Origin: an uncultured Gemmatimonadota bacterium
Lineage (GTDB): Bacteria; JAAXHH01
Reading direction: 5' to 3'
DNA length: 64,000 bases
NCBI GenBank assembly: GCA_951812955.1
Contig: OX638340.1
Coordinates: forward strand, 2,528,001-2,592,000
The notes under the pieces are model-generated. The model was not told where the DNA came from. It made no database searches and was given only the letters and a program-made list of their open reading frames with translations. The translations under genes and the position numbers were made by a program. Below are positions 5,922 to 25,696 of the stretch, piece by piece. The stretch's first letter is position 1, and every line of letters starts with the position of its first letter.

Positions 5922-6039
5922 TTCCGGTGGCGATAGCGGAGGGGAAACACCTCTTCCCATTCCGAACAGAGTAGTTAAGCCCTCTTGCGCCGATGGTACT
6001 GCTTGGGTGACCTTGTGGGAGAGTAGGACGCTGCCGGGG
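5922..6039 (+). rRNA. rrf: 5S ribosomal RNA
   Basis: ...CCCATTCCGAACAGAGTAGTTAAGC...GCCGATGGTACTG...GGGAGAGTAGGACGCTGCCGG, with terminal helix pairing. Ends are approximate. Confidence 0.85.
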
Positions 6040-6050
6040 GATGCATTGAA

Positions 6051-6084
6051 GGCGCTCGATTCATTTCGAGCGCCTTTTTTGTTT
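6051..6084 (+). terminator. rho-independent terminator of the rRNA operon
   Basis: GGCGCTCGA (6051-6059), 6-nt loop, TCGAGCGCC (6066-6074), followed by TTTTTTGTTT. Confidence 0.7.
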
Positions 6085-6147
6085 GGGGCTAATGAAAGCT
6101 TTAGATCGCTAGCGTAGTCTGGTTGTCTGGCCAGGTCCGGTCGTCGT

Positions 6148-6822: not shown

Positions 6823-7014
6823 ACACCCCTTTTGCAGTTTATCGGTATGCGTCGCACCTTAATCATTCGACTTGTGTGCGATGCGCATTGTTTCGTCGCG
6901 ATGTTGTGCATGCTTGTAAATGCTCTGCTTCACTAAGTGTTCGAGTGAGGGCGAAGGCGATTCGTGGAAGGCGGTGCTCCAGGATCAACGCTCTCAATAC
7001 TGAAGTGAAGAAGT

Positions 7015-7521
7015 TCAATCCGTACTATCCGGCAAATTCACTCCAAATTCCTTGATAAACCGCTCAAAGAAACCGGCCGACCTGTATTCCAACAGCACGT
7101 TTACAGGTTCTCCATCCATGCCCGATATGCCGAGCGGCTTTTCTCCCAAGAAAAATTCCAACCCAAGACTATCCACTTCCGGGTAACCGGATGACCGAAT
7201 AATCCACGCCGTGTCGACGACACCAGTTGCGTTCGAATGGACTCGAAGCAATACTTCTCCTTCGTTGATGAACTCGGGCGGAAGCGCTACGGTTAATGGC
7301 ATTAATGGTATTTCCCCATTTGAGCTCTCATCCTTGGAACGGAGAGTGTCTGATTGTCCTGTGCTATCCTGTTCCAGGTCGGTCATCGTCGTATCTATTA
7401 CAGTTTCGCCTTCCCGGTTCACATCGTCCTTTCCTTCACATGCCGTGTGACTCAGGATGAGGAAAAGCGACACCAGCGCGCATAGACTGATCACAGTCTT
7501 TTTTACCATTTGTTGAGTCAT
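7015..7521 (-). CDS. putative lipoprotein with a TonB_C-like C-terminal domain, cassette A
   Basis: Start chosen at MTQQMVKKTV because GGAGGA lies 9 nt upstream. Signal plus Cys (LILSHTAC). The C-terminus GEVLLRVHSNATGVVDTAWIIRSSGYPEVDSLGLEFF resembles the TonB C-terminal fold pattern. The listed ORF extends to 7632. Confidence 0.55.
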   Translation of the reverse strand: MTQQMVKKTVISLCALVSLFLILSHTACEGKDDVNREGETVIDTTMTDLEQDSTGQSDTLRSKDESSNGEIPLMPLTVALPPEFINEGEVLLRVHSNATGVVDTAWIIRSSGYPEVDSLGLEFFLGEKPLGISGMDGEPVNVLLEYRSAGFFERFIKEFGVNLPDSTD

Positions 7522-7651
7522 CGACCTTGATCCTCCAGATTGCGACGTTTCCAGTCTATCGGTGGAATACCGGTTGTCCCGCTCAGAATCCATGGTCTTC
7601 GACGTATTTGGCATCAGACCGTAGCCCGGCACCGGCCGGCGTCTATATCGT

Positions 7652-8540
7652 CTACCGGCCCGTCACTTCGATTCGATTCCGGATGCCACGCGTGTAAGTC
7701 AGATGCCCGCGTCGGTCAATCCAGATCCCTTCGACGTGAGGCAAATCATCCAGTAACCGCTTTGAATTCTCGACTCCCATGACGTACGTCGCAGTCGCCA
7801 GGGCGTCCGCCGTCATGGCGTCCGGGGCGATGACCGTGGCGCTGAGCACGTGGTTCGATGAAACCCCCAGCCGTGGATTGAGAATGTGAGCGATACGAGG
7901 GCCCTGGTGCAGTCTATAGTTCTCATAGTCTCCTGCCTTCGCAATGGCCTCGTCTTCGAGTTCGACCATGGCGCATAGTGCATCCATCCGAGCGGTATGG
8001 TGAACGTATCCCGATGCGCCACAGGCGAGTAAGCTCGAGCCATCACAGGGCAAAGATGTCTCCTCCGGCCGAAACCAGGCCACATCGGACCCGGTGGTCC
8101 CGCAACGCCCCGACCGCCCGATCCACCATCTTGCCGATCTCCCTGATCCCGCCATCGGCTTCGAGGGCGACGAGCAATCGAACGTTGTTGCACACGGGAC
8201 AACGAAGATCCTCCTGTACCTCGTAAACGTACCCTACAGGATCGCCCTGTTCACCGAAAATCACGTAGCGGTCATATTCCCGAAAGTCCTCGTGCTTCCG
8301 GGATTCGGCCATGTGGAACGTAACCGAAACAAACTCCGAAACTGTCGGTTCATCGAGCGGTGGAAACAGGTTGGACATGCCGGCTAGCTCGTTTGACATC
8401 CTGTAAAGCGACGGGTCGGATCCGACTACATCGGTTCCGCCGGATCCCATGAGATAGATGAGATTCACGGCCACGACTACGGTGCCTGCTCCGGCGATCA
8501 ACACCACCGCCATTCGACTACGTTTCAAAAACTGCGCCAT
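7652..8540 (-). pseudogene. deletion-fused remnant: N-terminal part of the FMN_bind membrane protein joined to the C-terminal part of the ApbE flavin transferase, with an in-frame TGA and a frameshift
   Basis: Aligned by eye to intact cassette B genes. Residues 1-~131 match the FMN_bind protein up to ...CPVCNNVRLLVALEADGGI. It then switches to ApbE-like GKMVDRAVGALRDHRVRCGLVSAGGDIFAL. A TGA at 8043-8045 aligns with a Gly codon. The same frame continues WLELTRLWRIGIRSPY. A +1 shift near 7980 leads into LCAMVELEDEAIAKAGDYENY...ADALATATYVMG (ORF 7652..8155). Confidence 0.8.
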
Positions 8541-8582
8541 AGGTAAGTCACCCGAATGGACGTCTGAAGAACGTCGGAAACG

Positions 8583-11027: not shown

Positions 11028-11040
11028 GATCGGGTGCTCC

Positions 11041-13503
11041 CTACGGTTCCAGGACAAGAAAGTTGACCGACTTGAAGACGCGCTGATCAGCGTGCCGGTC
11101 CGTCAGCGTCACGGTCAGCACATACTCCCCGGCTTCGAGATCCGTGGTGTCCATCGCGGTGTATTCAGCCTCTTCCGCTGAACTCCCCTCGCCTTCGAAG
11201 AAGGACATCACAGTCTGCATGTCGTCCGGCCTTCTGGCCCTGCGGTTCCTCAGTGCGGGCATGCCCAGGGGCGTGATTTCGTAAAGTGTCTCGTAGGAAG
11301 TGCGTCCGGCGTTGCCTAAATCCAGGTTGTACAATTCGTAGTAAACGTAAACGGGGTTTCCCCGAATGTAGAGCCGTCCCGGATTGGGCGTGATATTCAA
11401 CCCCTTGCGCACAAAGGGGCCCTGTACGCCTGACGGCGTGATGAGGGTGGCCAGCTTGAGATCGCTGATGAGCAGGTCGCGGCCGCGGTAGTCGGACAGC
11501 GTGACTGGCTTGCGATACACTCCGACCCGGCTCGTTGTCTCGTCCCGCACCTGGACTGCCAGCGTGAAACTACCCGACGGCGCGACAACGCTTTCAGGCA
11601 GGGTATACACCGGAACTTTCACGTTGCTTTCAGCCATCATACGCTTCGGCCTGTCGAAGGGACCGAAACCGAACTCGTGGGTGAACTGGGGGCTCATGGT
11701 CGAATCACGCAGGGTGACCAGGTGCGCGAGCCGGGTGCTGTTACCCCTGCCGTCCGAGACATCGCCGAACTGCCACACGGGGATGCTGTAGGACAGGTCC
11801 AGTTCCGTCGCGCCGTTGTCAGCCCTGTAGCTTACGGCGTCGAAGGCATATTCGAGTGGTTCTCCCCCGAAGTCGTGCAGGAATTCCTCGGGACTGCGCT
11901 TGATCAGGTTCTCGGCAACTCGTTGAGGATGATGGGTATCGTTTCGACGCATCAACTCGAAACCCGTGATGTCACCAAACGAATCCCCACCTTCATAGAT
12001 TGTCTGAAGTGGATAATCGAATTTCCCACCGCCCATCTGGTCCACGAAAAACAGTTCAAGATTATGCTGTACGTAAACCCAGCTTTCGACCTTGTACGAT
12101 TCTCCGACCAGACGTTTGAGTAACTCGAATGGATTGCTCTCCGACGAGCTCCCCCAGAGATCCACCGATCCCAAATCGAATCCCTGGAGCTGCATGATCT
12201 CCTCATCCAACAACGCCACCGGATCTCCCCTGCCCACCCGCAACACGTAGCCGGACTGCATATTCCGCACGCGTATTGCGTCCACGGCAGGAATCGCCGA
12301 CGGCTTGAAAACGGAAAAGGTGTTCCCATGCCTGCGCAGCAAGAAGTTGCTACGGTCATCCGGCGTACCGTATCGAACGTGAATCTCCCCGCGGCGGTCA
12401 AAGGGATACTGGCCCTCTGAGAAATGATTGCGGGCGTACAGTACGCGCCGGTAGTGTTCCACCAGGCGCTCGTTTTCGACGGTGGCCGGATTGGAATCCC
12501 GTGCGTTCCAGAAGGTCTGCCACAGCGCGTCGCGTTCCGGTCCTTCCACAGCCTCCCAGGTCTTCAATTCATCGGGAGGCGCGACATGTCGCAGGTCCCG
12601 GTACACCGCCTGCTCATCGGGATCGAGACCCGATATATAGGTCTCCAGGGCTTCCTGCAATCGATCGAACCCCCGTTCAGTCGAACCCGAAAGCATGCTG
12701 AACTGAAGCTGCAGGGTCCTGACCTCGTCCGCGACGGCATCTCCTGATTCTTCGACCAACTGTCCCAGGAGTTCAGCACCTATTTCGAACGCTTCGGCAC
12801 GAAGACACACATTGGTAAACCGCTCGAAGGCCCGACGGTGTTTGGGGTTTACCCGGTACTGGTTGAAATAGGCGGCTATCGCTTTTTCGTAGTCCGGCAA
12901 CGGGGGACTTTCATAACATCGTCCCAGTTGATAGTAGGCGTCCTCATGGGATGGATTCAGCTCTACGACCTTGAGGAAATACGTCCTGCCATCCCGGTCG
13001 CTGCCCACGATGGTATCTACTTTTTTATCATTCATGAAGGACATGCCCAGGTAGTACTGGGCGTCCGCGTTGTCCGGATCCAGGCGGATCGCGGTACGCA
13101 ACGCGTTGCGGGCATCCAGCTTTCTGTTTTGCAACTTCAGGTAGGTCTTCCCCAATCCGATGTGACCAGGCGCCCATTTTTTGTCCTGCCGCACTGCGCT
13201 CCTGAACGAACTCAACGCCTCACGGTAGTCGCCCAATTCATACCGCGCCATTCCGAGCCAGTAGTGGGCGGGCGCCGAATCCCCGTCAGCCTTGACGGCC
13301 ATTAGGAAGTACGGCAGCGCTTCCGCGTATCGTCCCTGTTGGTAAAGTGATTTGCCTTTTTCGTGGGCTGGCAGATCAATATCGGATACGGCCGATTGCG
13401 GCGGGGAAGTCCAGGTCTGGGAATGGCCGGGTAAACTCAGTGCAAGCGCGGCGATTGTAAGAAGCAGGCGGACGTACACGTAGTGCCTCTTTGGACGAAT
13501 CAA
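11041..13503 (-). CDS. secreted TPR-repeat protein with a GWxTD-like domain
   Basis: Signal peptide, multiple TPR-like repeats (AxxYxxLGxxY patterns), then ...LWQTFWNARDSNPATVENERLVEHYRRVLYARNHF...FDRRGEIHVRYGTPDD. This resembles the GWxTD domain family, but the motif position reads YPFDRRG. Confidence 0.55.
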   Translation of the reverse strand: MIRPKRHYVYVRLLLTIAALALSLPGHSQTWTSPPQSAVSDIDLPAHEKGKSLYQQGRYAEALPYFLMAVKADGDSAPAHYWLGMARYELGDYREALSSFRSAVRQDKKWAPGHIGLGKTYLKLQNRKLDARNALRTAIRLDPDNADAQYYLGMSFMNDKKVDTIVGSDRDGRTYFLKVVELNPSHEDAYYQLGRCYESPPLPDYEKAIAAYFNQYRVNPKHRRAFERFTNVCLRAEAFEIGAELLGQLVEESGDAVADEVRTLQLQFSMLSGSTERGFDRLQEALETYISGLDPDEQAVYRDLRHVAPPDELKTWEAVEGPERDALWQTFWNARDSNPATVENERLVEHYRRVLYARNHFSEGQYPFDRRGEIHVRYGTPDDRSNFLLRRHGNTFSVFKPSAIPAVDAIRVRNMQSGYVLRVGRGDPVALLDEEIMQLQGFDLGSVDLWGSSSESNPFELLKRLVGESYKVESWVYVQHNLELFFVDQMGGGKFDYPLQTIYEGGDSFGDITGFELMRRNDTHHPQRVAENLIKRSPEEFLHDFGGEPLEYAFDAVSYRADNGATELDLSYSIPVWQFGDVSDGRGNSTRLAHLVTLRDSTMSPQFTHEFGFGPFDRPKRMMAESNVKVPVYTLPESVVAPSGSFTLAVQVRDETTSRVGVYRKPVTLSDYRGRDLLISDLKLATLITPSGVQGPFVRKGLNITPNPGRLYIRGNPVYVYYELYNLDLGNAGRTSYETLYEITPLGMPALRNRRARRPDDMQTVMSFFEGEGSSAEEAEYTAMDTTDLEAGEYVLTVTLTDRHADQRVFKSVNFLVLEP

Positions 13504-13625
13504 GAAGTGGCATTGACGATTCGCGTTACCGAATCAAGGGGAGTTGCTTTCAAGGTATCCAATAGACCAGGAATCAACAACCGTCTATGCGACGCAGTTC
13601 CACAAGGTATCCCCATAGGTCGCGC

Positions 13626-14297
13626 TTACGCGGCCTCCGTCACGATCCGTCCGTCGAAGAGCCTGATGGTCCGGTGGGCGTGGTCGGCCAGCGCCTGGTC
13701 GTGGGTCACCATGATGATGGTCGTGCCCGCCTCGTTGAGGCCGTTGAGCAGTTCCATCACCTCGGCGCCGTTGGCCGAGTCCAGGTTACCCGTCGGCTCG
13801 TCCGCCAGGATCAGCCTGGGGTTGCCGATGACCGCCCGCGCCACGGCCACGCGCTGCTGCTGGCCGCCGGATAGCTGCTGCGGGAAGTGGTTCCGGCGGT
13901 GGGGGATCTGCATGTGCTCCATCGCCGCGTCCACCCGTTCCTTGCGCTCCTGCTTCGACGTGCCCAGGTAGATCAGCGGCAGTTCGATGTTCTCGTACAC
14001 GGTCAGCTCATCGATCAGGTTGAAGCTCTGGAAGACGAAGCCTATGTTGGCCTTGCGCAGGTTGGCGCGCTGCCGCTCGGAGTGGCCGGACACTTCCTGG
14101 TCCAGGAAATGGTACTCCCCGCCCGATGGATTGTCGAGGAGACCGAGGATGTTGAGCAGGGTGGACTTGCCGCAGCCCGAGGGTCCCATGACCGCCACGA
14201 ACTCGCCTTCGTCCACGGCCATGGTCACATCGTTCAGCGCCGTCGTCTCTACCTCTTCGGTCGCGTAGAGTTTCTTGAGATGTTCTGTCCTGATCAT
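13626..14297 (-). CDS. ABC transporter ATP-binding protein (MacB/LolD-like), cassette B
   Basis: ~92% amino-acid identity (about 18 differences counted by eye over 223 aa) to ORF 6148..6822, with the same Walker and signature motifs. Start set at MIRTEHLKKLY (14297) by alignment. The listed ORF extends to 14450. Confidence 0.9.
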   Translation of the reverse strand: MIRTEHLKKLYATEEVETTALNDVTMAVDEGEFVAVMGPSGCGKSTLLNILGLLDNPSGGEYHFLDQEVSGHSERQRANLRKANIGFVFQSFNLIDELTVYENIELPLIYLGTSKQERKERVDAAMEHMQIPHRRNHFPQQLSGGQQQRVAVARAVIGNPRLILADEPTGNLDSANGAEVMELLNGLNEAGTTIIMVTHDQALADHAHRTIRLFDGRIVTEAA

Positions 14298-14446
14298 GGT
14301 GCGCTCCCGTAGTGTGGTAATACTCCGTATCCACGCATGCCATTTCGGAATCGTTCCTAATATCAAAGTAGCAAATGAAGAGGGTTGCAATTCCAGGTCG
14401 GAGAGATTAACTCCATAGATTGTGCGACTACGTTCATGCTGGAGAA

Positions 14447-16864
14447 TCACTCATACCTGAGCGCATCTACCGGGTTCAACGGTGCTTCTTTTGTAACATG
14501 GAAGGCAATCGTAGCGATGATTACTAACAGAATCCCCATGCTTACCAAGATGTAGAGGCTAAGGGGTGGAGAAACTCGATATGCGAAATCTTGTAACCAA
14601 ACGGCAGTAACCAAGTACGCCAACGGCCACGCTACCAGATTGGCGATCGCTGCCATAACTACAAACTGTCTAGACAGCAACTGAGTCAATTTCATAACTG
14701 TAGCACCCAGGGTCTTGCGTATGCCTAATTCCTTCGTTCTCTGTTTTGTGGTCAGGGAGACCAGGTTGAAAAGTCCCAGGAATGTCAAGATAGTAGCTAA
14801 GATGGTACAGACACCTATAAGCGAACCTAGACGTTTCTCCGGTACGTAAAGTCGATCAATATCGTCCTCCAAGAGGGAATAGATAAATGGAATTTCAGGA
14901 AAATAAGACTGCCAGGTAAGATCTAGGTAACTTAACGCAGATTCCATTTTCCCATCCTGAAAGCGCACCATCATGTGTTCGCCATTACCGTTCGTGAAAA
15001 CCATCGGTTCAACAGGCTGATAAGACGACCGGAAGTGGGCATCCGCAACGACACCTACAACCCTGCCTCGTTGGGTGATCTGAGGGTATACGATATCTAT
15101 CGTCTGGTCTACTGCTGACACTGGAGAAGTCCAACCTAGGTGGCGTACTGCCGTTTCGTTGAGAACAAGCTCGATTACGGGCAAAGGCCCAAAAGTCGAA
15201 TATGTAGCAAGACTCCTGTGCCTCAAAAAGCGTCCGTGTACCAGCTGTAAACCCAGTGTGTTTATGTAATCGTGCTCAACGCCCACAAATCGTACGGATC
15301 TGGAATTCCTCAGACTGTTTCCTGCCCGAGTTCGAACCATCCCATCACCCATTGTACCACGGGCAGGTTCAAGTGCCGGCACATAAGTTGAGAATGAAAC
15401 GCTGAGTACATCTGGCGATCTCAACATATCGTTTTTGAATCCGCTAGGTGGAACTAGTATTCCGCCTGGGAAGAAGCCTGTTATCAGGGGTACATTGACT
15501 ACATTTGATTCGTCAAAACCCTGGGGTTTGGTCAACATGTATTGAATCTGGATGTAGACCACGCAGGTGCTGATAATCAGAATAGTGGAGAGAGAAAACT
15601 GGATGATGATGAGCATCCGTTTCACCAGTGGAAAGTCCACTGAATGGCTGATTCTGTTTCCAAGAGAAAAGAGAGGGTGTACTCCTGACATAACCAAAGC
15701 CGGAAATCCTCCTGAAACGACTCCAACGATTATCGCAACGACAACTATCCCAAGCCAGATTCCAAAGTCTTCAGTAACGCCAAAAGAAAGCGTTTTACCT
15801 GTCAGCCAATTAAATGATGGCAGTGCAAGATAGGTCAAAATGAGAGCTAAAAACAAAACCAACATCACCATGGTTAAGGATGCAATCATATGCTGCCTGA
15901 TAATCTGAATTCGATCAGCACCGAAAATCTTAATCAAACCCACTTCCTTCATCTGATCAGCCGAATGAACCATAGACAGATTGACAAAATTGATTGAAGC
16001 GATGAGCAACAAGAAGATCGCACCTGAAATGAGCGCAAAGATGTAACTCACACTGCTATTCACCTCGAGTTCATTCAAAAGGCGGGAACGAAGGTGAATC
16101 TCCGTTAGTGGTTGAAGTATGAAACTATACTCCCGGATCCACGCGCTGTTGCTAGGTTTTACCGTTGATTCAAAATACCGCTGAAACTTGTCTTCGAGAA
16201 TTGAAGCCTGGTTACCTTCGTTCAACCGGACGTAGGTGTAATAGTCGGGACGCGACCAGTTGTCAATGTAGGATAGTTCATTGCCGAAACTCAGGAAGAA
16301 CCCAGCCTCGAAATGGGAGTTGACCGGGAAATCCTCCATTATCGCGGTAACGGTAAAATCCCATGTGTTGTCGGCTTGCAACACCTTACCGATGGGATCT
16401 TCCTCGCCAAAGTACTTTCTGGCGACTGACTCTGATATAACGACCTTGCCTATGCCATCCAACGCGTTGGTTTTGTTCCCCTTTACAAGTGGTATGGTAA
16501 AGACATCAAACAAGGAGGCTTCGGTCCAGTATACCTTATCTTCGTAAAAAGCACGATCACCGTACTGCATTAGCCAGATGGCCCTGGCCGCCCTTAAACG
16601 AACAGTACTTACAACTTCAGGAAAGTTCAGCTCAAGGGAACCTGAGGCGGCACCTGGAGTTCGGGCATTGGTGCCGTCAATCAATCGGAAGATCTCGTTG
16701 GCGTGTTCGTGGTGAGAATCGTATTTCAGTTCTTCCTGGATATACATCAGGGTTAAAATACACATAGCCATCCCGACAGTTATTCCGCTGATGTTTAATA
16801 TGGTATTGGATTTCTGCTTTAATAGTGCACGGGTGGAGATTTTCAGGTGGTGGGGTAGTTCCAT
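14447..16864 (-). CDS. MacB/FtsX-type ABC transporter permease, cassette B (low-GC)
   Basis: 805 aa, paralog of 8583..11027, with the same double FtsX architecture and C-terminal NPVDALRYE. Confidence 0.85.
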   Translation of the reverse strand: MELPHHLKISTRALLKQKSNTILNISGITVGMAMCILTLMYIQEELKYDSHHEHANEIFRLIDGTNARTPGAASGSLELNFPEVVSTVRLRAARAIWLMQYGDRAFYEDKVYWTEASLFDVFTIPLVKGNKTNALDGIGKVVISESVARKYFGEEDPIGKVLQADNTWDFTVTAIMEDFPVNSHFEAGFFLSFGNELSYIDNWSRPDYYTYVRLNEGNQASILEDKFQRYFESTVKPSNSAWIREYSFILQPLTEIHLRSRLLNELEVNSSVSYIFALISGAIFLLLIASINFVNLSMVHSADQMKEVGLIKIFGADRIQIIRQHMIASLTMVMLVLFLALILTYLALPSFNWLTGKTLSFGVTEDFGIWLGIVVVAIIVGVVSGGFPALVMSGVHPLFSLGNRISHSVDFPLVKRMLIIIQFSLSTILIISTCVVYIQIQYMLTKPQGFDESNVVNVPLITGFFPGGILVPPSGFKNDMLRSPDVLSVSFSTYVPALEPARGTMGDGMVRTRAGNSLRNSRSVRFVGVEHDYINTLGLQLVHGRFLRHRSLATYSTFGPLPVIELVLNETAVRHLGWTSPVSAVDQTIDIVYPQITQRGRVVGVVADAHFRSSYQPVEPMVFTNGNGEHMMVRFQDGKMESALSYLDLTWQSYFPEIPFIYSLLEDDIDRLYVPEKRLGSLIGVCTILATILTFLGLFNLVSLTTKQRTKELGIRKTLGATVMKLTQLLSRQFVVMAAIANLVAWPLAYLVTAVWLQDFAYRVSPPLSLYILVSMGILLVIIATIAFHVTKEAPLNPVDALRYE

Positions 16865-17284
16865 AACTGGCCTACAGATACTTAGTAAATGGTTCTAAGA
16901 GGGTTGTGATTAACGTCGAAGGGGCAGTTGAAAGTCTATAACTGCCTGTACGTTTAAACTCGTCCTCCGGTTTGATCAGCCCCAGACGTTCGCCGAGTGT
17001 TTTGGACTCGTCCACCACTGGCATTCAGCGAGGAGAGCATTTCCGTTGTCGGTGCGTGGAGCGTCGTTTGTTTTTTAACCTTGATGAATTCAATACCCAG
17101 ACGAAGTCGGTCAATCAACTCTTCCAACTGCTTGATTTGAATAGGCTAATAGAGGAAGTCACGGCGAAGGCTTCACTGGCAATATCGCGACTTTGATTCA
17201 GGTAGTTAATGTTGTCGTACGCATCTTAGTCTCCATGTGCGCTGTCAGGTTGGGTCTGTGACGGATTTTGTGTTACTGACTTTA

Positions 17285-17500
17285 TCATGTTAAGGGCACT
17301 TTGTCTTCGTACATGATGATGAACTTGCTGGTGGCGGCCGTCCAGTTGGCGATGGGCCGTGTCTACCTTCGGGCCAGGTAGAGCAGTTTCCTGGCTACCC
17401 CGTCGGTGGGGAAGGCGCCGCCGCGCTATGGTCACCCCCAGTCTGCATGAGCACGTTCACCGCCCGTTACAATTCTGCTTCACATTGCATGGCGGCCAGC
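17285..17500 (-). mobile_element. decayed C-terminal relic of an IS256 (Mutator)-family transposase
   Basis: My own reverse-strand translation gives ...IVTGGERAHADWG*P*RGGAFPTDGVARKLLYLARR*TRPIANWTAATSKFIIMYEDKVPLT**. The block FP(T/S/N)D..A.KLLYLA...NW..A...F.I.F.D is the conserved C-terminal signature of IS256-family transposases. Several in-frame stops are present and no N-terminal part was found. Confidence 0.6.
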
Positions 17501-17707
17501 AATAGACTGGCAAAAGACGGTCAAAGGACAGGCGTAAACTTGTCGCTCTGAGTGCTATCCTTTACATAAACCTCTTCGACTCAGTCGTCTTCCACGGCTT
17601 CTTTATTCAGTCGACGTTTTCATCAAGCCCTTTAGATCCTCGTCGGTCTGTCTTGAAGCTACCGTGTATTTAACACCGCTCCCTTGTCATGAAGTACGAC
17701 CCACTCG

Positions 17708-18709
17708 TTAATTGACAATCTGCAATCTATTCTGGATCCCTCTTGTAAAAATAAACTGTCCATGCTGATCAATCCAGATCCCCTCGACGTATGGCATATC
17801 GTTCAGCAATCTCTGAGAACTTTCGATACCCATAACATAAGTCGCTGTGGCAAGCGCATCCGCTATCATTGCGTCGGGAGCGATAATCGTGGCGCTATGC
17901 ACGTGATCCGTCGAAGTCCCAAGTCGAGGATTGAGTATGTGTGTAATACGGCGACCTTGATTGATTTTGTAGTTTTCATAACCACCCGACGTCGCAACCG
18001 CCTCATCTTCGATTTCGACTGTGGCGCACAATGTATTGGGATGGTATGGAGACCGGATACCAATACGCCAAAGACGTTCAGGTTCTGGCCTTCCCATGGC
18101 AAGAACATCCCCACCTGCAGATATCAACCCGCATCTAATGTGGCGGTTTCGTAATACGTGAGCCATTCGATCCAATCCGTAACCTTTTGCTATTCCGCCA
18201 AAGTCTACCCCATAACCAGACGAAGCAATTCGTACTTTCTGTTCTTGCACTTGCAACTGATTAAAGTCTACCAGTTCGAGCATTTGCCGTAAGCTTCGAC
18301 TTGACGGATCACAATTATAAAATCCCCAGTGGTACATAATCGGTAGAATTGTCACATCGAAGGCACCATCTGTAATCTCGCCGATTCGTCTTGCTGTAGT
18401 CGCGACCTTGATAAAGTGGGGTGTTACGCCATGCCAAAGCCCATACATGTTGTTTACATGCGTAAGTTCACTGGTATTACGATAGAGGCTTAGCAGGCTG
18501 TCAATTTGAGCTAAAGCATCGAAGGCATCATAAATTGATTCTTTACTGTACTCGCATTCCTTGATTACAAGTTCTACTTTCGTCCCCATATGAATCTGAT
18601 GACGACGAACAAGCCTTTGCTTGTCTGACAATCCTGCGCCAAAATTGTATGGCACAAGTAACATTGCCGATGAAAGGCCGACCGATTTTATGAAATTGCG
18701 TCGCTTCAT
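17708..18709 (-). CDS. apbE: FAD:protein FMN transferase (ApbE family) with a Tat-type signal
   Basis: The N-terminus MKRRNFIKSVGLSS is twin-arginine-like. Also ...DFGGIAKGYGLDRMA...ISAGGDVLAMG...WRIGIRSP...ATSGGYENY...HILNPRLG...PDAMIADALATA, the typical ApbE motif series. Confidence 0.85.
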   Translation of the reverse strand: MKRRNFIKSVGLSSAMLLVPYNFGAGLSDKQRLVRRHQIHMGTKVELVIKECEYSKESIYDAFDALAQIDSLLSLYRNTSELTHVNNMYGLWHGVTPHFIKVATTARRIGEITDGAFDVTILPIMYHWGFYNCDPSSRSLRQMLELVDFNQLQVQEQKVRIASSGYGVDFGGIAKGYGLDRMAHVLRNRHIRCGLISAGGDVLAMGRPEPERLWRIGIRSPYHPNTLCATVEIEDEAVATSGGYENYKINQGRRITHILNPRLGTSTDHVHSATIIAPDAMIADALATATYVMGIESSQRLLNDMPYVEGIWIDQHGQFIFTRGIQNRLQIVN

Positions 18710-18778
18710 AGGGGCTATGCTATGATGGAATCTAGGACCATCTTTGTTTTCAAAAACAAGGCTACGTACAGAAAGCCC

Positions 18779-19378
18779 CTAACCTCGATGGATATGCCTA
18801 AGTCTATTGAGAGCATCAACAATATGAATCGAGCTTTTGGTAGCACCTGTGATTCCGTCGATATTTTCGCCTAATACGTAGAAATGTAGGTTCGGTTTCG
18901 ACTTAAATTGCCTCAGAAACCTCGTTTCATCCTCAACAGATAGTGGTTCACCGGAGAGTTCAAGGGGTTCAAGCACTCTGATATCATGGAGCCGACCCAA
19001 GTCATCGAGTGCGACGAGCATTCGGACGTTATTGCAAACAGGACATTTGAGATCCTCCTGTATTTCGTAGACGTAGCCAACAGTGTCGATTCGTTCGTCA
19101 AACACCACATATCGATCGTAACCTCTGAATTTCTCGTGTTTGCTAGAATAGCTTTCAGAGAAAGCGGATATAGTGAATTCCCTTAAGATACGATCGTCAA
19201 GTGGTGGGAATATGTCGGATGAAGTAATCGAACCACTTCCCGATCCCAAGTTCGACACGTGTGAGTAAATCACATCGTCATCACATGAATGTCCGGATAA
19301 GTAGACTATATTGACCACAGCAATTACTACTCCGGTTATAAGAAACATGGTTCTTTGAATGAGTTTGAAATTTCGCAT
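18779..19378 (-). CDS. membrane-anchored FMN_bind-domain protein with a predicted flavinylation site
   Basis: Start set at MRNFKLIQ (19378) by alignment with the cassette A homolog. One N-terminal TM helix. GYVYEIQEDLKCPVCNNVRMLVALD core. DGITGAT at 18839-18859 matches the Dxx(S/T)GA(T/S) ApbE acceptor motif known from NqrC/RnfG. Confidence 0.7.
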   Translation of the reverse strand: MRNFKLIQRTMFLITGVVIAVVNIVYLSGHSCDDDVIYSHVSNLGSGSGSITSSDIFPPLDDRILREFTISAFSESYSSKHEKFRGYDRYVVFDERIDTVGYVYEIQEDLKCPVCNNVRMLVALDDLGRLHDIRVLEPLELSGEPLSVEDETRFLRQFKSKPNLHFYVLGENIDGITGATKSSIHIVDALNRLRHIHRG

Positions 19379-19515
19379 ACTACAACCGAACTCCATCTTC
19401 GTTTGAGCAGAAGAGGCCGAAGTTTGACTGGTTGTTCCTTGGGAGCCACGACATAGATTTGGGATTTCACTGACTGAACAGAATGTTGAGTTGAGGGGAG
19501 GCCGAGCCAATACAC

Positions 19516-19932
19516 TTATCTAAGGCGGAAGCTCATTGGAAAGTAGAATTGCGCAGATATAGGCTTTCCTTCCTTAGTCGCTGGCTTGAAAATCATCATT
19601 CGTGCTTGCGACAGTGCAAGACTATCTAGTTCTGGATGGGTCGACGATTCTATGATCGAAACAGATTCCACCGTGCCATCTGCCTTAGATCTTAAGAGAA
19701 GTACAACATCGCCTTCATTGCTGTACTTATCCTGTGGCGTGGGTCTAAACAATAGTCGTGGAGACGTATCCCAATCACCCACTTTAGCTATAACTTCAGT
19801 GTCAACTTGGGTTTCTTCCACCGGCACACTATCGTTCTCTACATTTCTGTCGTTACTGCAGGAGATGACTAACGAAAAGAGTACAATCTGGGACAGGCTG
19901 AATCGAAGCATTTGTGGAGCCCTTTCTGTCAT
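19516..19932 (-). CDS. lipoprotein with a TonB_C-like domain, cassette B
   Basis: Lipobox LVISC. The C-terminus GDVVLLLRSKADGTVESVSIIESSTHPELDSLALSQARMMIFKPATKEGKPI fits the TonB C-terminal pattern. Confidence 0.6.
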   Translation of the reverse strand: MTERAPQMLRFSLSQIVLFSLVISCSNDRNVENDSVPVEETQVDTEVIAKVGDWDTSPRLLFRPTPQDKYSNEGDVVLLLRSKADGTVESVSIIESSTHPELDSLALSQARMMIFKPATKEGKPISAQFYFPMSFRLR

Positions 19933-20022
19933 ATGAGGTCGATTTCTGAACGCGAGGTAAATTCTGATTCATGTTCTAACTTTCAATGTGATTCAAAATC
20001 ACCAGTATAAGTTAAAACCTGA

Positions 20023-21735
20023 TCAATCGGGGCTATTGACCCGAGAAGTAAATCGAAAATTGTATTTAAATATCGTATTTTGGGGGACGATGAGTCGTGT
20101 TCCCATAGTGGGCATTAAACGAAACCTGCCTACAGACTCTAAGGCGATACTATCCAGTGCCGGATGTGCTGATGGTGTCTTTGTCCAAATCGAATCTACG
20201 ATACCATTTGAGTCGAAAAGTACGTTCACTGCAATTTCCATTTCGTCAAGATGACCGTACTCAAGAGGGAATGCACGACTCGTAGCCGTACCGAGGTGCA
20301 AGATTAGAGGTTCTTCATACGATGGCACAACATAGTCGTCAATGATCCCGTCGGTCACTAGTCGAATGTATTGGTCATATCCTTCCAAGGATCGCCAGGA
20401 ATCATCTTTTGTGAATCTGGCGATACTCTGTGCAAAAGATGTAAAAGGGAGGTCACCGATACGGCGAGGATGGGACATCATGTTGACGGATTGATTGTTG
20501 GCGTACGATCTGATAAAAAGACTCGATTCATCTATCGGCATGGAAGACACGTTATCGAAGTATCGTGTGAAAGTTGACCGGTCCGACCCGTTGGAATCAT
20601 GGGCTTCGGTGGACGGCATGTTAGTGAAGTATTGAGAGATATCAAATCGGTCTGACCCGCTGGATGCCTGCACTTCGCGATAGGTAGTTGTAGTCAGATA
20701 GTACTCCACATTTGAAACGTAGAATACGGAAATGGTCGCATCATGAGACCGGACGTAGTCTGATATACCACGCAAGGCTGTTTCACCGGCGAAATCACCT
20801 ACGACTGGAACGATCAAGTTCCTCCCGTGCAACTTCTTGACGACGTCAAATGCACTATCATCAGCAAGGAAGTTGGCTTGCTCCCCACTTATCGTTTCTG
20901 CAAGAATCAACTCCCGCAGACTCGGGAAATTAAAGGTTGCATCCCCCGGTGTTCCCAGATCGTACTGGATGTCTAACTGGCTCCTGAAGAAAGCCTGATA
21001 GACTCGTTCGACAGCTTTCATATCTTCCATCGAGTCTATGCCATACGAATGTAAATGGGACTTGATGACCCGGAGATTTCGCTCGTAGAGTTTTACATCG
21101 GGATCTATTCCGTCGAAATATGCGATCAGCGTTGCAACAGATGATTCACTTCGAGACCAGGGCCGGACCGGTCCTCCCTTAAATATCTCGGCCAGGTAGG
21201 AGAGATTCCGGTTCAATGGTTTGCTGAGCAGCCTAGACAGGAATTCAGCACTGTCGCTGGACTGAGCGAAGAGGGACTTGTAGATCAGGTGCAACAGCAT
21301 GTTATCGCGACGAATGTCAACCACGAAAGCCATGTGCGGCCTGGTCTCGGCGATGTAGGTAAAATTCTGTTCGGGGCCGACACCCACATAAACGCCACCG
21401 GAAACGTGCCGTTCGCGTAGTACGGCAAATGGATGCAGGTAAGAAGATTCGTTTGAGGTGAAATTGGTTGAATGAAAGGAGCCACCCGTCTCCGACAGTT
21501 CTCTAATCAGGTTCGAGAAGGCTGGCGTGGACAGTGAGTCCGGGAGGGCACCTGCTCTTGGATATGGCTTTACAGTCCTCTTGTTAGACCAATCAGAAGG
21601 ATTGTAACACTGGACTGCAAACAACATCACGACAACACCTGCCGTTATCCATGTTGTTGTTTTCCATATAACCATATCCGAGGATTTCCAAGCAGCTAAA
21701 GATTGACCTAAGTATTGTGAAAGTCTCTCAGCCAC
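20023..21735 (-). CDS. N-terminally anchored protein: unrecognised ~400-aa central domain plus a TonB_C-like C-terminus
   Basis: One TM helix (WITAGVVVMLFAV). The central region with GVGPEQNFTYIAETRPHMAFVVDIRRDN...HLIYKSLF could not be assigned to a named family. The C-terminus IAVNVLFDSNGIVDSIWTKTPSAHPALDSIALESVGRFRLMP is TonB_C-like. Confidence 0.5.
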   Translation of the reverse strand: MAERLSQYLGQSLAAWKSSDMVIWKTTTWITAGVVVMLFAVQCYNPSDWSNKRTVKPYPRAGALPDSLSTPAFSNLIRELSETGGSFHSTNFTSNESSYLHPFAVLRERHVSGGVYVGVGPEQNFTYIAETRPHMAFVVDIRRDNMLLHLIYKSLFAQSSDSAEFLSRLLSKPLNRNLSYLAEIFKGGPVRPWSRSESSVATLIAYFDGIDPDVKLYERNLRVIKSHLHSYGIDSMEDMKAVERVYQAFFRSQLDIQYDLGTPGDATFNFPSLRELILAETISGEQANFLADDSAFDVVKKLHGRNLIVPVVGDFAGETALRGISDYVRSHDATISVFYVSNVEYYLTTTTYREVQASSGSDRFDISQYFTNMPSTEAHDSNGSDRSTFTRYFDNVSSMPIDESSLFIRSYANNQSVNMMSHPRRIGDLPFTSFAQSIARFTKDDSWRSLEGYDQYIRLVTDGIIDDYVVPSYEEPLILHLGTATSRAFPLEYGHLDEMEIAVNVLFDSNGIVDSIWTKTPSAHPALDSIALESVGRFRLMPTMGTRLIVPQNTIFKYNFRFTSRVNSPD

Positions 21736-21771
21736 TTCTTTTGACTAAGAGACTCTCACGCCGGATCAGCC

Positions 21772-23055
21772 CTAACAACTTCTACCACCATTACAGTAAC
21801 AACCTACATAGCCCCACACATATGCATCCCCACAGTCATCATAATAACTACAATATACGCGATGGGCCAGGACCGCATAGGCAAAGGAGAAGGGCAACGC
21901 GCACTGCAACCCCACGTGGACGATTCGATCGAGCATCCAGACTATCACGGGTAGGGCTGGACCGGATGCCGGAACCAGACCCCAAGAGGACAGGAGCGTG
22001 CCGGGTTTCGTGATTGTCCACATCGGCGCGAGGATGAGGGCCAGGATGAATCCGGCCTCGATAATCTGGAGGCGTATGCGCTGTTGCTGGCTCGCCACGA
22101 AACGCTGGGCAATCAGTAGGCATCCTGTTAAGATAACAACGAGGAGAGGAAACATTGGAACGGGAATGGGCTCAACTATGCGGACGACGAACTGCGCAAT
22201 CTCATTATTCCAACCATGGGTGATGCTCAGTAAGTAGATCGAATGTAAGACTATCCACACAAAGAGAGGCGTCAGGATGAACAATGCTTTTTTTCGTAAC
22301 CATTCTCCAAAGACAGACGAACTTGGAAAAACAGTTAATATCTGAAAGATAAGAACAGTTTCCAGGATTGTTGCTAATACGACGATGTATATACTGAGCG
22401 ATAGTAACCAAACCGGCCATCCTGCGATCATGGGATGAAAGGCAGGAGACGATGTGAGCGCCGTAGCGAGGAAGAGCAACGCGCATCGAAAGGCGATGAC
22501 GTTTAGATGACTGCGGAATCCCATCCAAGTACCAAAACCTAACAGCACGATCGGGAAGATCAGAAAGGGTCCTCTTTGGAACCAGGTCATCTCCGCGACA
22601 CCCATCACAATCTCCTGCTGATCAACCTGTAGGGTGTAAGGTACCTCTTCGATCTCCTCAAGTGTCATGATACCGGTATGTATCCGATCTTCGCGAAGCC
22701 AGACGATTTCGATACGTTCTCCGGGTTGACTTTGCAAACGTGCCTGGAAATAGGCTTCTGGTCGTGATCTCAGGTCGATTCCATTTACCGATATGATCCG
22801 GTCGCCCGACTGTATTCCTGCCAGGTCGGCCGGACTTCCGTTCTCGATCTGTACTGCGATGATACCTTCGTCTTGGCGAATCCGGACGAGATGAAACCAC
22901 GTACCTTCCTGTAGATTGCTAACGGCGCTCTTCGTCAACCCCGGCGTTTGTATCATCTCGCTACCAAAAAATTGAATGCCGGGCGACCAGTGTTCGATCT
23001 GCGTGAATCGAACAAGTGTCCACGCCACCAGACCCAATTGCATGCATAGCAGCAA
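21772..23055 (-). CDS. PDZ-domain polytopic membrane protein with a Cys/Tyr/Gly-rich tail
   Basis: PDZ-like segment GIIAVQIENGSPADLAGIQSGDRIISVNGIDL, followed by ~8 hydrophobic helices. The tail is YCSYYDDCGDAYVWGYVGCYCNGGRSC. The TTG start is uncertain, because the frame is open 17 codons further upstream with no canonical start. Confidence 0.6.
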   Translation of the reverse strand: MLLCMQLGLVAWTLVRFTQIEHWSPGIQFFGSEMIQTPGLTKSAVSNLQEGTWFHLVRIRQDEGIIAVQIENGSPADLAGIQSGDRIISVNGIDLRSRPEAYFQARLQSQPGERIEIVWLREDRIHTGIMTLEEIEEVPYTLQVDQQEIVMGVAEMTWFQRGPFLIFPIVLLGFGTWMGFRSHLNVIAFRCALLFLATALTSSPAFHPMIAGWPVWLLSLSIYIVVLATILETVLIFQILTVFPSSSVFGEWLRKKALFILTPLFVWIVLHSIYLLSITHGWNNEIAQFVVRIVEPIPVPMFPLLVVILTGCLLIAQRFVASQQQRIRLQIIEAGFILALILAPMWTITKPGTLLSSWGLVPASGPALPVIVWMLDRIVHVGLQCALPFSFAYAVLAHRVYCSYYDDCGDAYVWGYVGCYCNGGRSC

Positions 23056-23506
23056 GGCAAGTGTACAAACTATGAGATATCGATAGTTGAAAAACTTCAG
23101 TTGAGATCACCCCTGAGACTATGGACTGGATTCCGCAATACATGTTGCGTTGTGCCGACAATCGCCGTAAAGAGTTCAATTATAGACTATTCAGAGAAGA
23201 CGTGTCGGCAGCTTTGAAGAAATGTTACGAAACAGTAAGTGTCAAGAAAGTGCTGGTCACTGGTATTAGTCGTTACAAGGACCAGAACGAGGTCTTGTAG
23301 AAAATACTGGTCTAAACTAACACGGAATAGGAAAGGGAAGGTATTGCGAAACTATTGCTTGCGTTGTAGAACCGGCCATTCAACTCTGTGTGGTCGATTC
23401 AACCTGGCGGACCGCAGGTCGATTGGATTGTTCTTAAGGCTTTTTCAACTCGATTGTGTATCGTAGCCACGAGTTTTTAGCCGAAACAAAGCGACGCCCT
23501 TAAAAC

Positions 23507-23536
23507 TTGACACCAGAAGCTGGATCGCAACATATT
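23507..23536 (+). promoter_or_regulatory. possible sigma70-type promoter upstream of the EF-G paralog
   Basis: TTGACA at 23507-23512, an 18-bp spacer, and CATATT at 23531-23536. It is ~80 nt upstream of the start codon. Weak -10. Confidence 0.25.
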
Positions 23537-23614
23537 AGAGTTTTCCCGGTGAGTTGCCTTGTTTGAACTTTAAATGACTCGTAGAACGGAAGAGAGCGGT
23601 CCTGAAGAGGAGGA

Positions 23615-25696
23615 GTGTTCGTGAAGGAATATCGCATCGAAAACATCAGAAACATATGCCTCGCGGGCCACGGGGGGAGCGGCAAGACCTCCCTGGCGGA
23701 AGCCATGCTCTTCAACGCCGGCGCCACGAACCGCCTGGGCAGCGTGGACGATGGCAACACGGTTTCCGACTACCGCGAGGAAGAGATCGAGCACCGCATT
23801 TCGATGAACCTCACACCCCTTCACTTCGAGTGGAACGAACAGAACCTCCACGTGATCGACACCCCGGGATATTCCGATTTCACCAGCGAGGTGCACTGCG
23901 CGATGCGCGTCTCGGACAACGTGGCTATCGTGGTCAAGGCCATCGAAGGCATCGAGGTGGAGACCGAACGCGCCTGGGAATATACAGAACAGTACGGCCT
24001 GCCCCGCATGGTGGTGGTCAACCTGCTGGATAAGGAACACGCCGACTTCTACGACGTGCTGGGCCGCATCCAGGAACGGTTCGGCACGCAGGCCGTCCCC
24101 CTGCAAATCCCCATCGGCGAAGGCGAAGGCTTCGCGGGCGTTGTCGACCTGGTCGCCATGGAGGCGGTGACCTCTGAAGACGGCAAGGACAGCCGCGGCG
24201 AAATCCCCGGCGATCTCGCTGACCTGGCGGAGGAGTACCGTGAAAAGCTCATGGAGGCGGTGGCGGAATCCGACGATGGGCTGCTCGAGGTTTACTTCGA
24301 AGAAGGCGCATTGTCCGATGAGCAGCTCCTGGAAGGACTGCGAAAGGGTGTGCGGGAAGGCGCCATTTACCCCGTCATGGCGACATCGGCTACGCGGAAT
24401 ATCGGGGTCTCCGGCGTGATGGACGCGGTGGGAGCGTACCTGGCCTGCCCTGCGGACCGGCCGCCGGTTACGGTCACCCCTTCGGGAGGAGACGAAGAAA
24501 TCGCCCTGGATTCCGATCCATCCGGGCCCCTGGCGGCCCTTGTTTTCAAGACGGTTTCCGAAGCCCATATCGGAGAACTCACCTATTTCCGAGTGTATTC
24601 CGGCGAGATCAAGCACGGCGGCGACGTCTACAACTCGTCCAAGAACACGGCGGAGCGGTTCGGTCAGATCTACCAGACGAACGGCCACGAGCGGCATGAA
24701 CTGAACGTCATCCGCGCCGGCGAGATCGGGGCGACGGTCAAGCTGAAGGATACCCACACCGGCGACTCGCTCAGTACGAGACAGAAAACCTTCGACCTGG
24801 AGTGGGTGAACTTCTCCGAGCCCGTGGCGAACGTGGCCGTCCTGCCAAAGAGCAAGGAAGACGAGGAGAAGATCAGCACCGGCCTCTCCCGGCTGCACGA
24901 GGAAGATCCCTCCTTTACCTTCCAGTTCAACAGCGAGATCAAGCAGCTGATCCTGGCCGGGGCCGGCGAAATGCACCTGGACCTCATCGTCGAGCGGCTC
25001 AGCCGCCGTTTCGGCGTGGAAGTCGAGATGGTGCAGCCGCGCATTCCCTACCGCGAAGCAATCAAGGGCAAGTCCGAGGCCCAGGGCCGGTTCAAACGGC
25101 AGAGCGGAGGTCGCGGACAGTTCGGCGACGTCTGGCTGCGCGTGGAACCCAGGCATCGCGGCGACGGTTACGAATTCGACAACGGCATCGTCGGCGGAGC
25201 CGTCCCCAGCCGCTTCATTCCGGCGGTGGACAAGGGCATCCAGGAGGCCATGGTGGAGGGCGTGATGGCCAAGTATCCCGTGGTCGATCTGAAGGCCACG
25301 TTGTACGATGGCTCCTTCCACACGGTCGATTCATCCGAAATGGCCTTCAAGGTCGCCGCGTCCATGGGATTCAAGAAGGCCTTCATGGAAGCCCGGCCCG
25401 TCCTGCTCGAACCGATCTACGAAGTGGACGTGGTCGTCCCGGAAGACTATATGGGCGACGTCATGGGAGATCTTTCCAGCCGGCGCGGACGCATCCTGGG
25501 CATGTCGCCGCGGGGGAGCAACCAGGTGGTGCGGGCCGAAGTGCCCCTGGCCGAACTGTACAGGTACTCGACCGTGTTGCGATCGATAACGCACGGGCGC
25601 GGCAGCCACGCACGGAAATTCGTCCGCTACGAGGAAATACCGAAGGAAATCGAGAACAAGGTCATCGAAGAGGCCAAGACCCAGGAAGAGGACTGA
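23615..25696 (+). CDS. elongation factor G family GTPase (EF-G paralog)
   Basis: G1 AGHGGSGKTS, DTPGYSDF, and NLLDKE, with full EF-G domain length (693 aa). RBS GAGGAGG. The start may be the GTG at 23621. Confidence 0.85.
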   Translation: MFVKEYRIENIRNICLAGHGGSGKTSLAEAMLFNAGATNRLGSVDDGNTVSDYREEEIEHRISMNLTPLHFEWNEQNLHVIDTPGYSDFTSEVHCAMRVSDNVAIVVKAIEGIEVETERAWEYTEQYGLPRMVVVNLLDKEHADFYDVLGRIQERFGTQAVPLQIPIGEGEGFAGVVDLVAMEAVTSEDGKDSRGEIPGDLADLAEEYREKLMEAVAESDDGLLEVYFEEGALSDEQLLEGLRKGVREGAIYPVMATSATRNIGVSGVMDAVGAYLACPADRPPVTVTPSGGDEEIALDSDPSGPLAALVFKTVSEAHIGELTYFRVYSGEIKHGGDVYNSSKNTAERFGQIYQTNGHERHELNVIRAGEIGATVKLKDTHTGDSLSTRQKTFDLEWVNFSEPVANVAVLPKSKEDEEKISTGLSRLHEEDPSFTFQFNSEIKQLILAGAGEMHLDLIVERLSRRFGVEVEMVQPRIPYREAIKGKSEAQGRFKRQSGGRGQFGDVWLRVEPRHRGDGYEFDNGIVGGAVPSRFIPAVDKGIQEAMVEGVMAKYPVVDLKATLYDGSFHTVDSSEMAFKVAASMGFKKAFMEARPVLLEPIYEVDVVVPEDYMGDVMGDLSSRRGRILGMSPRGSNQVVRAEVPLAELYRYSTVLRSITHGRGSHARKFVRYEEIPKEIENKVIEEAKTQEED

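Follow-up and report, generated by a model that had tools for sequence, protein, structure and literature searches.

The 64-kb window analysed here, a segment of contig OX638340.1 from an uncultured Gemmatimonadota bacterium, contains a low-GC stretch (14298-23560) with a cassette of genes for a MacB-type ABC transporter, an ApbE flavin transferase and an FMN_bind protein, designated cassette B. This stretch is likely to be the AT-shifted core of a larger accessory region, which occupies an integrase-free hotspot between the terminator of the 5S rRNA gene and the promoter of a gene for a paralog of elongation factor G (EF-G). Close relatives would acquire, lose and exchange the content of this region through homologous recombination in conserved stretches, and the recombination sites may be the rRNA operon, the gene for EF-G and the strongly conserved ABC ATPase genes within the region. 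All coordinates are positions within the window, by which the whole stretch of DNA is meant, and numbers such as L001 denote comparison loci or contigs from other assemblies.

The accessory nature of the region is apparent from the same site in related species, which is delimited by the following features:

890-6039, plus strand: rRNA operon with 16S, tRNA-Ile, tRNA-Ala, 23S and 5S genes (Rfam, ARAGORN), the conserved left anchor
6048-6087, plus strand: 5S terminator hairpin and T-run (terminator scan), left border of a 17.4-kb variable region
23056-23496, no strand: AT-rich spacer; the variable region ends in it on the right, shortly before the conserved EF-G promoter
23615-25696, plus strand: EF-G paralog (Pfam), the conserved right anchor, 88-91% identical at the amino acid (aa) level in seven related species

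The EF-G promoter (TTGACA...CATATT) is conserved and starts at 23507. Promoter and terminator scans, whose hits were at or below shuffle expectation, were used only for this promoter and the 5S terminator. The seven related species were found by their EF-G paralogs of 88-91% aa identity in a search of species-representative genomes; all are metagenome-assembled genomes (MAGs) with chromosomes of 3.5-3.9 Mb, and two are labelled Candidatus Latescibacterota. The closest match to EF-G in a search of metagenome contigs had 67% identity. For five of the seven sister species (L007, L009, L010, L011 and L013), window positions 1-6087 align at 96.5-97.2%, EF-G aligns from 23595 onward, synteny is kept on both sides, and the gap between rRNA operon and EF-G is 138-1333 nt. 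Homology on the left ends at 6084-6092, both to the sister species and to strain L177, and homology to all seven sister species picks up again at 23483-23600. Given that the rRNA operon abuts EF-G in five of the seven, the variable region extends from approximately 6088 to 23490 (17.4 kb) and includes a second, paralogous cassette A as well as a TPR gene. The sequence-only reading, an earlier reading of the same DNA without database searches, had confined the island to 14298-23560; the segment absent from the sister species is larger, and the accessory part extends to cassette A and the TPR gene. At the same site, L008 and L012 carry genes for a PDZ histidine kinase, two response regulators and a different ABC system. 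With presence and absence differing at one site among close relatives (five of seven sister species, in addition to strain-level indels), the region is a genomic island in the general sense, and the site between the 5S terminator and EF-G behaves as an insertion/deletion hotspot. As a different hotspot content, a single 428-aa open reading frame (ORF) on the minus strand was observed at the 5S-to-EF-G site of L007 (8649-9935) and L011.

The low-GC stretch also deviates from its host in G+C content, in G+C at third codon positions (GC3) and in dinucleotide signature. Its G+C content, computed exactly, is 47.1%, compared with 57.3% at 6100-14297 and 62.1% at 23615-64000. In a 1-kb profile, values of 0.43-0.50 prevail within approximately 14.0-23.5 kb, with 0.55-0.60 to the left and 0.60-0.68 to the right. 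In 200-nt windows, the profile steps from 0.595 at 14100 to 0.465 at 14300 and from 0.505 at 23500 to 0.605 at 23600. The left step falls inside the spacer between the ATPase gene of cassette B (start 14297) and its permease gene (stop 14447), the right step just before the EF-G paralog at 23615, and thus both lie where abrupt edges had been claimed. The A/T-ending codon usage that had been noticed is equally real, with a GC3 of 0.426-0.561 in six island ORFs versus a mean of 0.772 (standard deviation 0.048) in 26 right-flank genes; the island ORF with the highest GC3 still has a z of -4.4. G+C at first codon positions (GC1) is 0.50-0.54 in island genes and approximately 0.62-0.70 in host genes, and the codon-position G+C of ApbE B and FMN_bind B resembles that of a genome with ~45% GC. 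The GC-normalised dinucleotide distance of 14298-21854 to the host (Karlin delta*, x1000) is 102, while host segments of 7.5 kb yield 26±10 with a maximum of 48.

Comparison with locus L001 indicates a recent recombinational exchange between lineages. Between the window and L001, positions 14266-21854 are 99.88% identical with nine mismatches, including an 843-nt non-coding stretch, and a single mismatch was counted at 13379-13955. In between, at 13956-14265, which is the 5' part of ATPase B, identity is approximately 90%. Outside the block, the TPR gene drops to 60-70% nucleotide identity below ~13331 from ~100% above ~13379, the PDZ gene reaches 77-87% and the 5' end of EF-G 95-97%. Since the block from approximately 13379 to 21854 is far more similar than its surroundings, in a comparison calibrated on short flanks, it would have been exchanged recently between lineages that are about 4% apart at EF-G. 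The block takes in the high-GC ATPase B gene and the initial 125-170 nt of the TPR gene, and its other end falls within a truncated kinase gene, so that the edges of G+C content do not coincide with those of the exchanged segment. L002 shares the block, beyond which it has an insertion sequence (IS; DDE_Tnp_1) and a hydantoinase gene.

The edges of the low-GC stretch were also found in other assemblies. A chimeric metagenomic assembly, in which the contig of a low-GC organism was wrongly connected to a high-GC chromosome, for instance at the ATPase repeat, would find its material in the two ATPase genes, which are 90% identical repeats beside compositional breaks, and in the metagenome-assembled source chromosome. 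Against this stands L001, which with 24.7 kb reaches from EF-G across the complete cassette and into the TPR gene and thereby spans both edges. The junction between low-GC permease B and high-GC ATPase B is spanned by L177-L180 from independent assemblies, L177 continues into the 5S/23S rRNA genes at 99.7% identity, and L087, obtained in another study, shares the gene order with 82-90% nucleotide identity. Because the same junctions recur in independent metagenome assemblies, they are genuine, and we consider a chimera extremely improbable.

The left part of the variable region turned out to be mobile at the strain level. L177 is 99.98% identical to the L001 strain; its TPR gene ends directly at the 5S terminator, and cassette B is present while cassette A is absent at the locus. 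Therefore, cassette A (~6088-11040) is a strain-level indel as well, and the view of cassette B as a xenolog of a system that the host already had puts the arrivals in a wrong or at least unproven order. Unequal crossing-over between ATPase A and ATPase B was considered as a source of the L177 arrangement. Such an event would leave a hybrid gene, B-like in its 5' and A-like in its 3' part, and remove the TPR gene, and it was ruled out by the opposite hybrid polarity and the retained TPR gene.

These data also bear on the donor. If a distant low-GC donor had supplied a complete cassette in one step to a genome already owning a native, high-GC cassette A, this would explain the GC3 of 0.43-0.56, the atypical dinucleotide signature, the codon-position G+C of ApbE B and FMN_bind B and the absence of the region from the site in sister species, and lower-GC relatives do exist in the wider clade (locus L014, ~52% GC). 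However, we regard such an import as unlikely, as the nearest relatives of permease B (86%, 70% and 54-58%) and of ApbE B (90% and 60-65%) all belong to the same genome group. Among 5.8 billion proteins, permease B is closest to proteins encoded at other loci, one in L087 (86%) and two in L090 and L092/L093 (70%), followed by a large set at 46-58% that includes permease A and its ~85% orthologs in sister genomes; the next homologs have at most 37% identity. In a neighbour-joining tree of the permeases, the B clade forms the basal branch of this lineage-restricted family. ApbE B has a relative at 90%, then A-type copies from the same genomes at 60-65%, then matches of at most 45%. No low-GC donor lineage was found in the permease tree or the ApbE hit list, and in place of the expected branching with such a donor, cassette B groups with paralogs of the same uncultured group.

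Further observations speak against a single import. ATPase B is host-like in composition (GC3 0.82-0.91), yet its synonymous divergence (dS) from L087 of 0.34 is near that of the permease (0.40); for the cassette genes including ATPase B, dS is 0.20-0.49 and the ratio of nonsynonymous to synonymous divergence (dN/dS) 0.09-0.38. The similar dS values argue that low-GC permease and high-GC ATPase travelled together, and by the dN/dS values the module genes are judged to be under purifying selection. The pattern of low-GC genes beside a high-GC ATPase gene recurs at the unrelated loci L090, L092, L095 and L096. Finally, L177 has cassette B without A, and cassette A is itself missing from the sister-species site.

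The composition would need no transfer at all if the envelope genes were long-term residents with a lower GC equilibrium than core genes, possibly because selection is weak, or GC-biased gene conversion scarce, in accessory genes that are seldom expressed, with the ATPase kept GC-rich. The GC3 values are gene-specific in a way that fits this explanation:

GC3 0.41-0.63: DUF7790, TonB_C, FMN_bind and ApbE genes and B-type permeases, in all contexts recovered
GC3 0.68-0.73: A-type permeases
GC3 0.88-0.91: adjacent ATPase and membrane-fusion protein (MFP) genes at related loci
GC3 ~0.8-0.89: unrelated flanking genes

Low-GC module genes adjoin a high-GC ATPase gene at five other loci. Every B-type locus recovered has a local GC dip, with a high-GC ATPase where one is present (L087, L090); the clearest case is L090, a completely different locus, with a 3.9-kb dip to 42-51% GC in a background of 63-70%. 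Over six loci and 14-45% protein divergence, the AT shift has been retained. With a GC3 of 0.82-0.91, the ATPase genes lie above the host mean of 0.77, and mosaics that resemble the outcome of gene conversion were seen in them. The L001 ATPase gene (14413-15084) matches window ATPase A at 94% in its 5' half and window ATPase B at 99.7% in its 3' half; the 5' half of ATPase B is 91% identical to L001. A resident equilibrium is nevertheless improbable as an explanation of the region, considering that GC1 is shifted too (0.50-0.54 versus ~0.62-0.70), that presence and absence vary between strains and species, that a 99.9% shared block lies in a 96% background and that the module in L002, L096 and the window is accompanied or interrupted by IS elements or their relics. 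From presence and absence, the shared block, GC1 and the IS elements it follows that the genes do move; an equilibrium may account for the persistence of low G+C, though not for the island. Long-term residence in an AT-biased pool of flexible genes and a gene-specific compositional equilibrium are equally compatible with the lasting AT shift. Of the horizontal acquisition proposed by the sequence-only reading, it therefore stands that the genes are compositionally foreign, accessory and exchanged horizontally, while extent, edges, order of arrival and donor need correction.

How the region moves is illuminated by what was and was not found at its edges. The absence of a flanking tRNA gene, an integrase and direct repeats, stated before, was verified: tRNA genes occur only within the rRNA operon (Ile and Ala); no integrase or recombinase was detected when every ORF of 100 aa or more in 6.1-23.1 kb was scanned with Pfam; and no repeats of at least 16 nt were found at the edges, with only paralog pairs and chance 16-20-mers returned by the search. 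The relic of an IS256 family transposase was confirmed by tblastn and is the only trace of mobility in the island. Therefore, neither an integrase nor an insertion at a tRNA or tmRNA 3' end with direct repeats marks the region as a classical integrase-type island. In addition, it is not an IS256 composite transposon: the repeat search revealed no second copy, and the single internal 349-nt relic is absent from L087. Deviant G+C content and codon usage, accessory distribution and IS remnants are shared with classical genomic and pathogenicity islands, whereas the integrase, tRNA site and direct repeats of the latter were not found here.

A closer likeness exists to the integrase-free hotspots of E. 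coli, for which spread by flanking homologous recombination has been described (Touchon et al. 2009, PMC2617782). Variable content between the same two conserved anchors across genomes is common to both, as are the lack of tRNA target, integrase and flanking repeats and the presence of IS debris, which fits spread by homologous recombination. In contrast to the E. coli sites, one anchor in the window is an rRNA operon, the lineage is an uncultured, high-GC one, and the region has a conserved internal ABC ATPase gene with recombination mosaics. Breakpoints of recombination were thus placed within conserved genes. The reassortment of modules is suggested by L095 (8334-12412; sister genome OZ241920.1), in which a DUF7790 gene 86% identical in nucleotides to that of the window adjoins a permease gene only 66% identical to either window permease; this mix of a B-like DUF7790 and an A'-type permease implies that modules of this family reassort. 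The synteny of the module recurs in L001, L087, L092, L090, L095 and L096.

Several points weigh against an accessory region that spreads by homologous recombination and carries a functional envelope module. The background divergence between window and L001 was calibrated on only 356 nt of EF-G and on slowly evolving rRNA genes. The 99.9% identity of the block could partly reflect strong constraint, yet the 843 non-coding nucleotides are equally conserved. The rRNA operon as an anchor is established for five of the seven sister species, L008 and L012 being the other two, and no transfer vehicle or recombination intermediate was seen. Furthermore, the function of the module is inferred from domains alone, with NCBIfam scores for ADOP and for DarB and DarD below the curated cut-offs.

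All genes from 6148 to 23055 are encoded on the minus strand. In cassette B, their order on this strand is PDZ, DUF7790, TonB_C, FMN_bind, ApbE, 843 nt of non-coding DNA, permease B and ATPase B. The features are, by ascending position:

13626-14297, minus strand: ABC ATPase B (Pfam ABC_tran), with a GC3 of 0.82 over the longer ORF 13626-14450
14447-16864, minus strand: permease B of the duplicated MacB/ADOP type, 805 aa, GC3 0.51 (Pfam MacB_PCD, FtsX)
16954-17130, minus strand: remnant of an MFP gene, 70% identical in nucleotides to its counterpart in the intact A-type cassette of L096
17093-17441, minus strand: 349-nt insertion relative to L087 (gap in the alignment), with the relic of the C-terminus of an IS256-family transposase
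17708-18709, minus strand: ApbE B of the FAD:protein FMN transferase family (Pfam ApbE, 242 bits)
18779-19510, minus strand: membrane-anchored FMN_bind protein B (Pfam FMN_bind, 23.3 bits, just over the cut-off of 22)
19516-19932, minus strand: lipoprotein-like protein B with a TonB_C domain (Pfam TonB_C, TIGR01352)
20023-21735, minus strand: DUF7790 or LIC_10091-like protein (Pfam DUF7790, 106 bits; weak NCBIfam match to LIC_10091_fam)
21854-21857, no strand: deletion junction and right end of the ~99.9% block (blastn breakpoints versus L001, L002, L087, L008 and L012)
21857-23055, minus strand: truncated gene for a PDZ histidine kinase with multiple transmembrane segments (Pfam PDZ), with the first ~401 of 888 codons kept

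Cassette B had been called intact, which is overstated: the C-terminus of the kinase and two response regulators are missing, and the MFP gene is only a remnant. The truncated PDZ gene ends in an unrelated tail of 26 codons that runs to 21772, while L001 and L087 have the full-length kinase (PDZ, HisKA_3 and HATPase_c). The 4.7 kb that are present in L001 and L087 and missing from the window encode the C-terminal half of the kinase, two response regulators of the LuxR/GerE type and a pair of small ORFs. Pfam gave no match for the ORFs of 173 and 198 aa in L001. The PDZ product of the window is 81% identical in amino acids to that of L001 and 61-62% identical to the EF-G neighbours in L008 and L012. 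Its position beside EF-G in L012 and L008 would make the PDZ gene a purely native anchor, but in L087 and L092 the gene is also part of the conserved module, and it may be either. The IS256 relic encodes a peptide of 45 aa (17422-17288, minus strand) that had no match in Pfam; in tblastn searches against plasmids, it matches annotated IS256 family transposases with E ~1e-6.

A protein identical to ApbE B is present on six other metagenome contigs, which stem from several independent assemblies, and the N-terminal KRRNFIK of ApbE B resembles a Tat signal. FMN_bind B carries the flavinylation motif DGITGAT at 18839-18859 (residues 218-224); judged from the gene calls in L001 and L087, its true start is probably internal, giving ~189-199 aa. 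Export or lipid anchoring is suggested for the TonB_C and DUF7790 proteins. DUF7790 is the most constant partner of these permeases, located beside or near the permease gene in L087, L090, L092, L095 and L096, and a sequence search of the PDB matched only the uncharacterised protein 6ulo.

Downstream of its B-type cassette, L087 (13495-22418) has a second PDZ kinase gene with two response regulator genes, followed by genes for an S41 peptidase, a 52-aa ORF, a radical SAM enzyme, a pentapeptide-repeat protein and an S8 peptidase; this segment may be a modified-peptide cluster. Pfam scans detected no radical SAM enzyme among the island ORFs.

The remainder of the variable region comprises cassette A and the TPR gene:

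6148-6822, minus strand: ABC ATPase A, high GC, GC3 0.84 (Pfam ABC_tran)
7015-7632, minus strand: TonB_C-like ORF of cassette A, GC 0.50 and GC3 0.54, with a 39-aa stretch 49% identical to TonB_C B
7652-8540, minus strand: pseudogenised FMN_bind/ApbE of cassette A (ORF translations, blastp versus the B copies)
8583-11027, minus strand: permease A of the duplicated MacB/ADOP type, 814 aa, GC3 0.735 (two MacB_PCD and two FtsX domains in Pfam)
11041-13503, minus strand: TPR/GWxTD protein (Pfam, NCBIfam), with a middle part hypervariable between strains and conserved ends

Permease, ApbE, FMN_bind and TonB_C of cassette B are diverged paralogs of those in cassette A, which is decayed. In cassette A, a deletion joins residue ~135 of FMN_bind to residue ~171 of ApbE, with a frameshift thereafter, and the fusion has lost the flavinylation motif and the N-terminal half of ApbE. 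The A and B copies are 90.3% identical in nucleotides and 93% in amino acids for the ATPases, 64% and 55.7% for the permeases, and 53% (ApbE) and 50% (FMN_bind) in amino acids. Permease A is identical to protein P0017 and has orthologs of ~85% identity in related genomes. ORF 7015-7632, for which Pfam gave no match, occupies the slot of the MFP gene in intact A-type cassettes by comparison with L096, in which the order is DUF7790, permease, FMN_bind, ApbE, MFP and ATPase; it is a second small low-GC ORF outside the island as first drawn. The intact A-type cassette of L096, a sister genome, is bracketed by transposase genes (DUF772, DDE_3 and rve/HTH_Tnp_1; 5334-6053 and 17406-21824) and by other low-GC ORFs, so A-type cassettes also sit in IS-rich flexible DNA.

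The TPR/GWxTD gene was compared between the window (11041-13503), L001 (15231-16853) and L177 (9527-11806). Its middle part has ~57% aa identity between strains, while the first 125-170 nt are nearly identical and the last ~90 residues, compared by eye, are ~90% identical. This pattern suggests diversifying selection or allele replacement.

The low-GC genes appear to belong to a module family that is restricted to a group of uncultured MAGs, some of them labelled Latescibacterota. The full module would comprise a PDZ histidine kinase, two LuxR-type response regulators, DUF7790, TonB_C, FMN_bind and ApbE proteins, a permease of the MacB/ADOP type and its ATPase. The genome of the window would then hold this module without the regulators and the membrane-fusion gene, next to a pseudogenised paralogous cassette A. 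Judged from its domains, the module probably builds an envelope ABC machine under two-component control, in which a Tat-exported ApbE flavinylates the periplasmic partner.

Two MacB_PCD and two FtsX domains are shared with MacB-type tripartite exporters and ADOP permeases, as are the separate MacB/LolD/DarD-like ATPase and the MFP gene in intact A-type cassettes. Unlike these systems, cassette B has only an MFP remnant, and the scores are far below the curated cut-offs: despite the duplicated architecture, the match to the ADOP family TIGR03434 reaches 206.8 bits versus 622.3. The best NCBIfam match of the window ATPase is the darobactin exporter ATPase DarD, below its cut-off, and assignment to the exporter DarBCD is not supported by 273.7 bits for DarD (cut-off 375) and 91 bits for DarB (cut-off 700).

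The combination of an ApbE transferase with an FMN_bind substrate that bears an [S/T]GA[S/T] motif is predicted to form an ApbE flavinylation system. As in described flavinylation clusters (Meheust et al. 2021, PMC8238504), ApbE is encoded beside a membrane-anchored FMN_bind protein with a motif of this type, and a TonB_C protein is part of the cluster, as in some PepSY-like clusters. In contrast to these clusters, the one analysed here is without a recognised electron-transfer membrane partner such as NQR/RNF, PepSY or DsbD. At 17708-19510 (minus strand), the Tat-like ApbE and its putative FMN_bind substrate are embedded in a MacB-type ABC/DUF7790/PDZ-kinase module. MacB, FtsX and ABC transporters go unmentioned in the text of the flavinylation survey (PMC8238504), and we found no described counterpart of the constant pairing of DUF7790 and ApbE/FMN_bind with a MacB-type permease.

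A further reading, which we put forward only tentatively, takes the GC contrast not as a fading trace of import but as a stable, gene-specific state within one operon. Gene conversion among paralogs would keep the ATPases host-like and alike and turn them into portable homology for the swapping of permease/DUF7790 modules, and the pairing of ApbE flavinylation with a MacB-type transporter and a PDZ kinase would be an undescribed one. In keeping with this possibility, a GC3 of ~0.41-0.58 in DUF7790, permease and flavoprotein genes (0.68-0.73 in A-type permeases) contrasts with ~0.82-0.91 in ATPase and MFP genes at six loci and across up to 45% protein divergence, and the mixed pair in L095 would be one sign of swapping.

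As a compositional island, the stretch is ordinary. Our preferred interpretation as the core of a larger accessory region makes it a clean integrase-free insertion hotspot beside an rRNA operon in an uncultured high-GC lineage. It also illustrates that GC boundaries need not match the boundaries of mobility, given that the exchanged block has a host-like ATPase and that a native-looking cassette is accessory. Two features go beyond the ordinary, namely the persistence of GC3 values of ~0.5 and ~0.9 repeatedly side by side within one operon, and an undescribed association of ApbE/FMN_bind with a DUF7790-MacB permease module.

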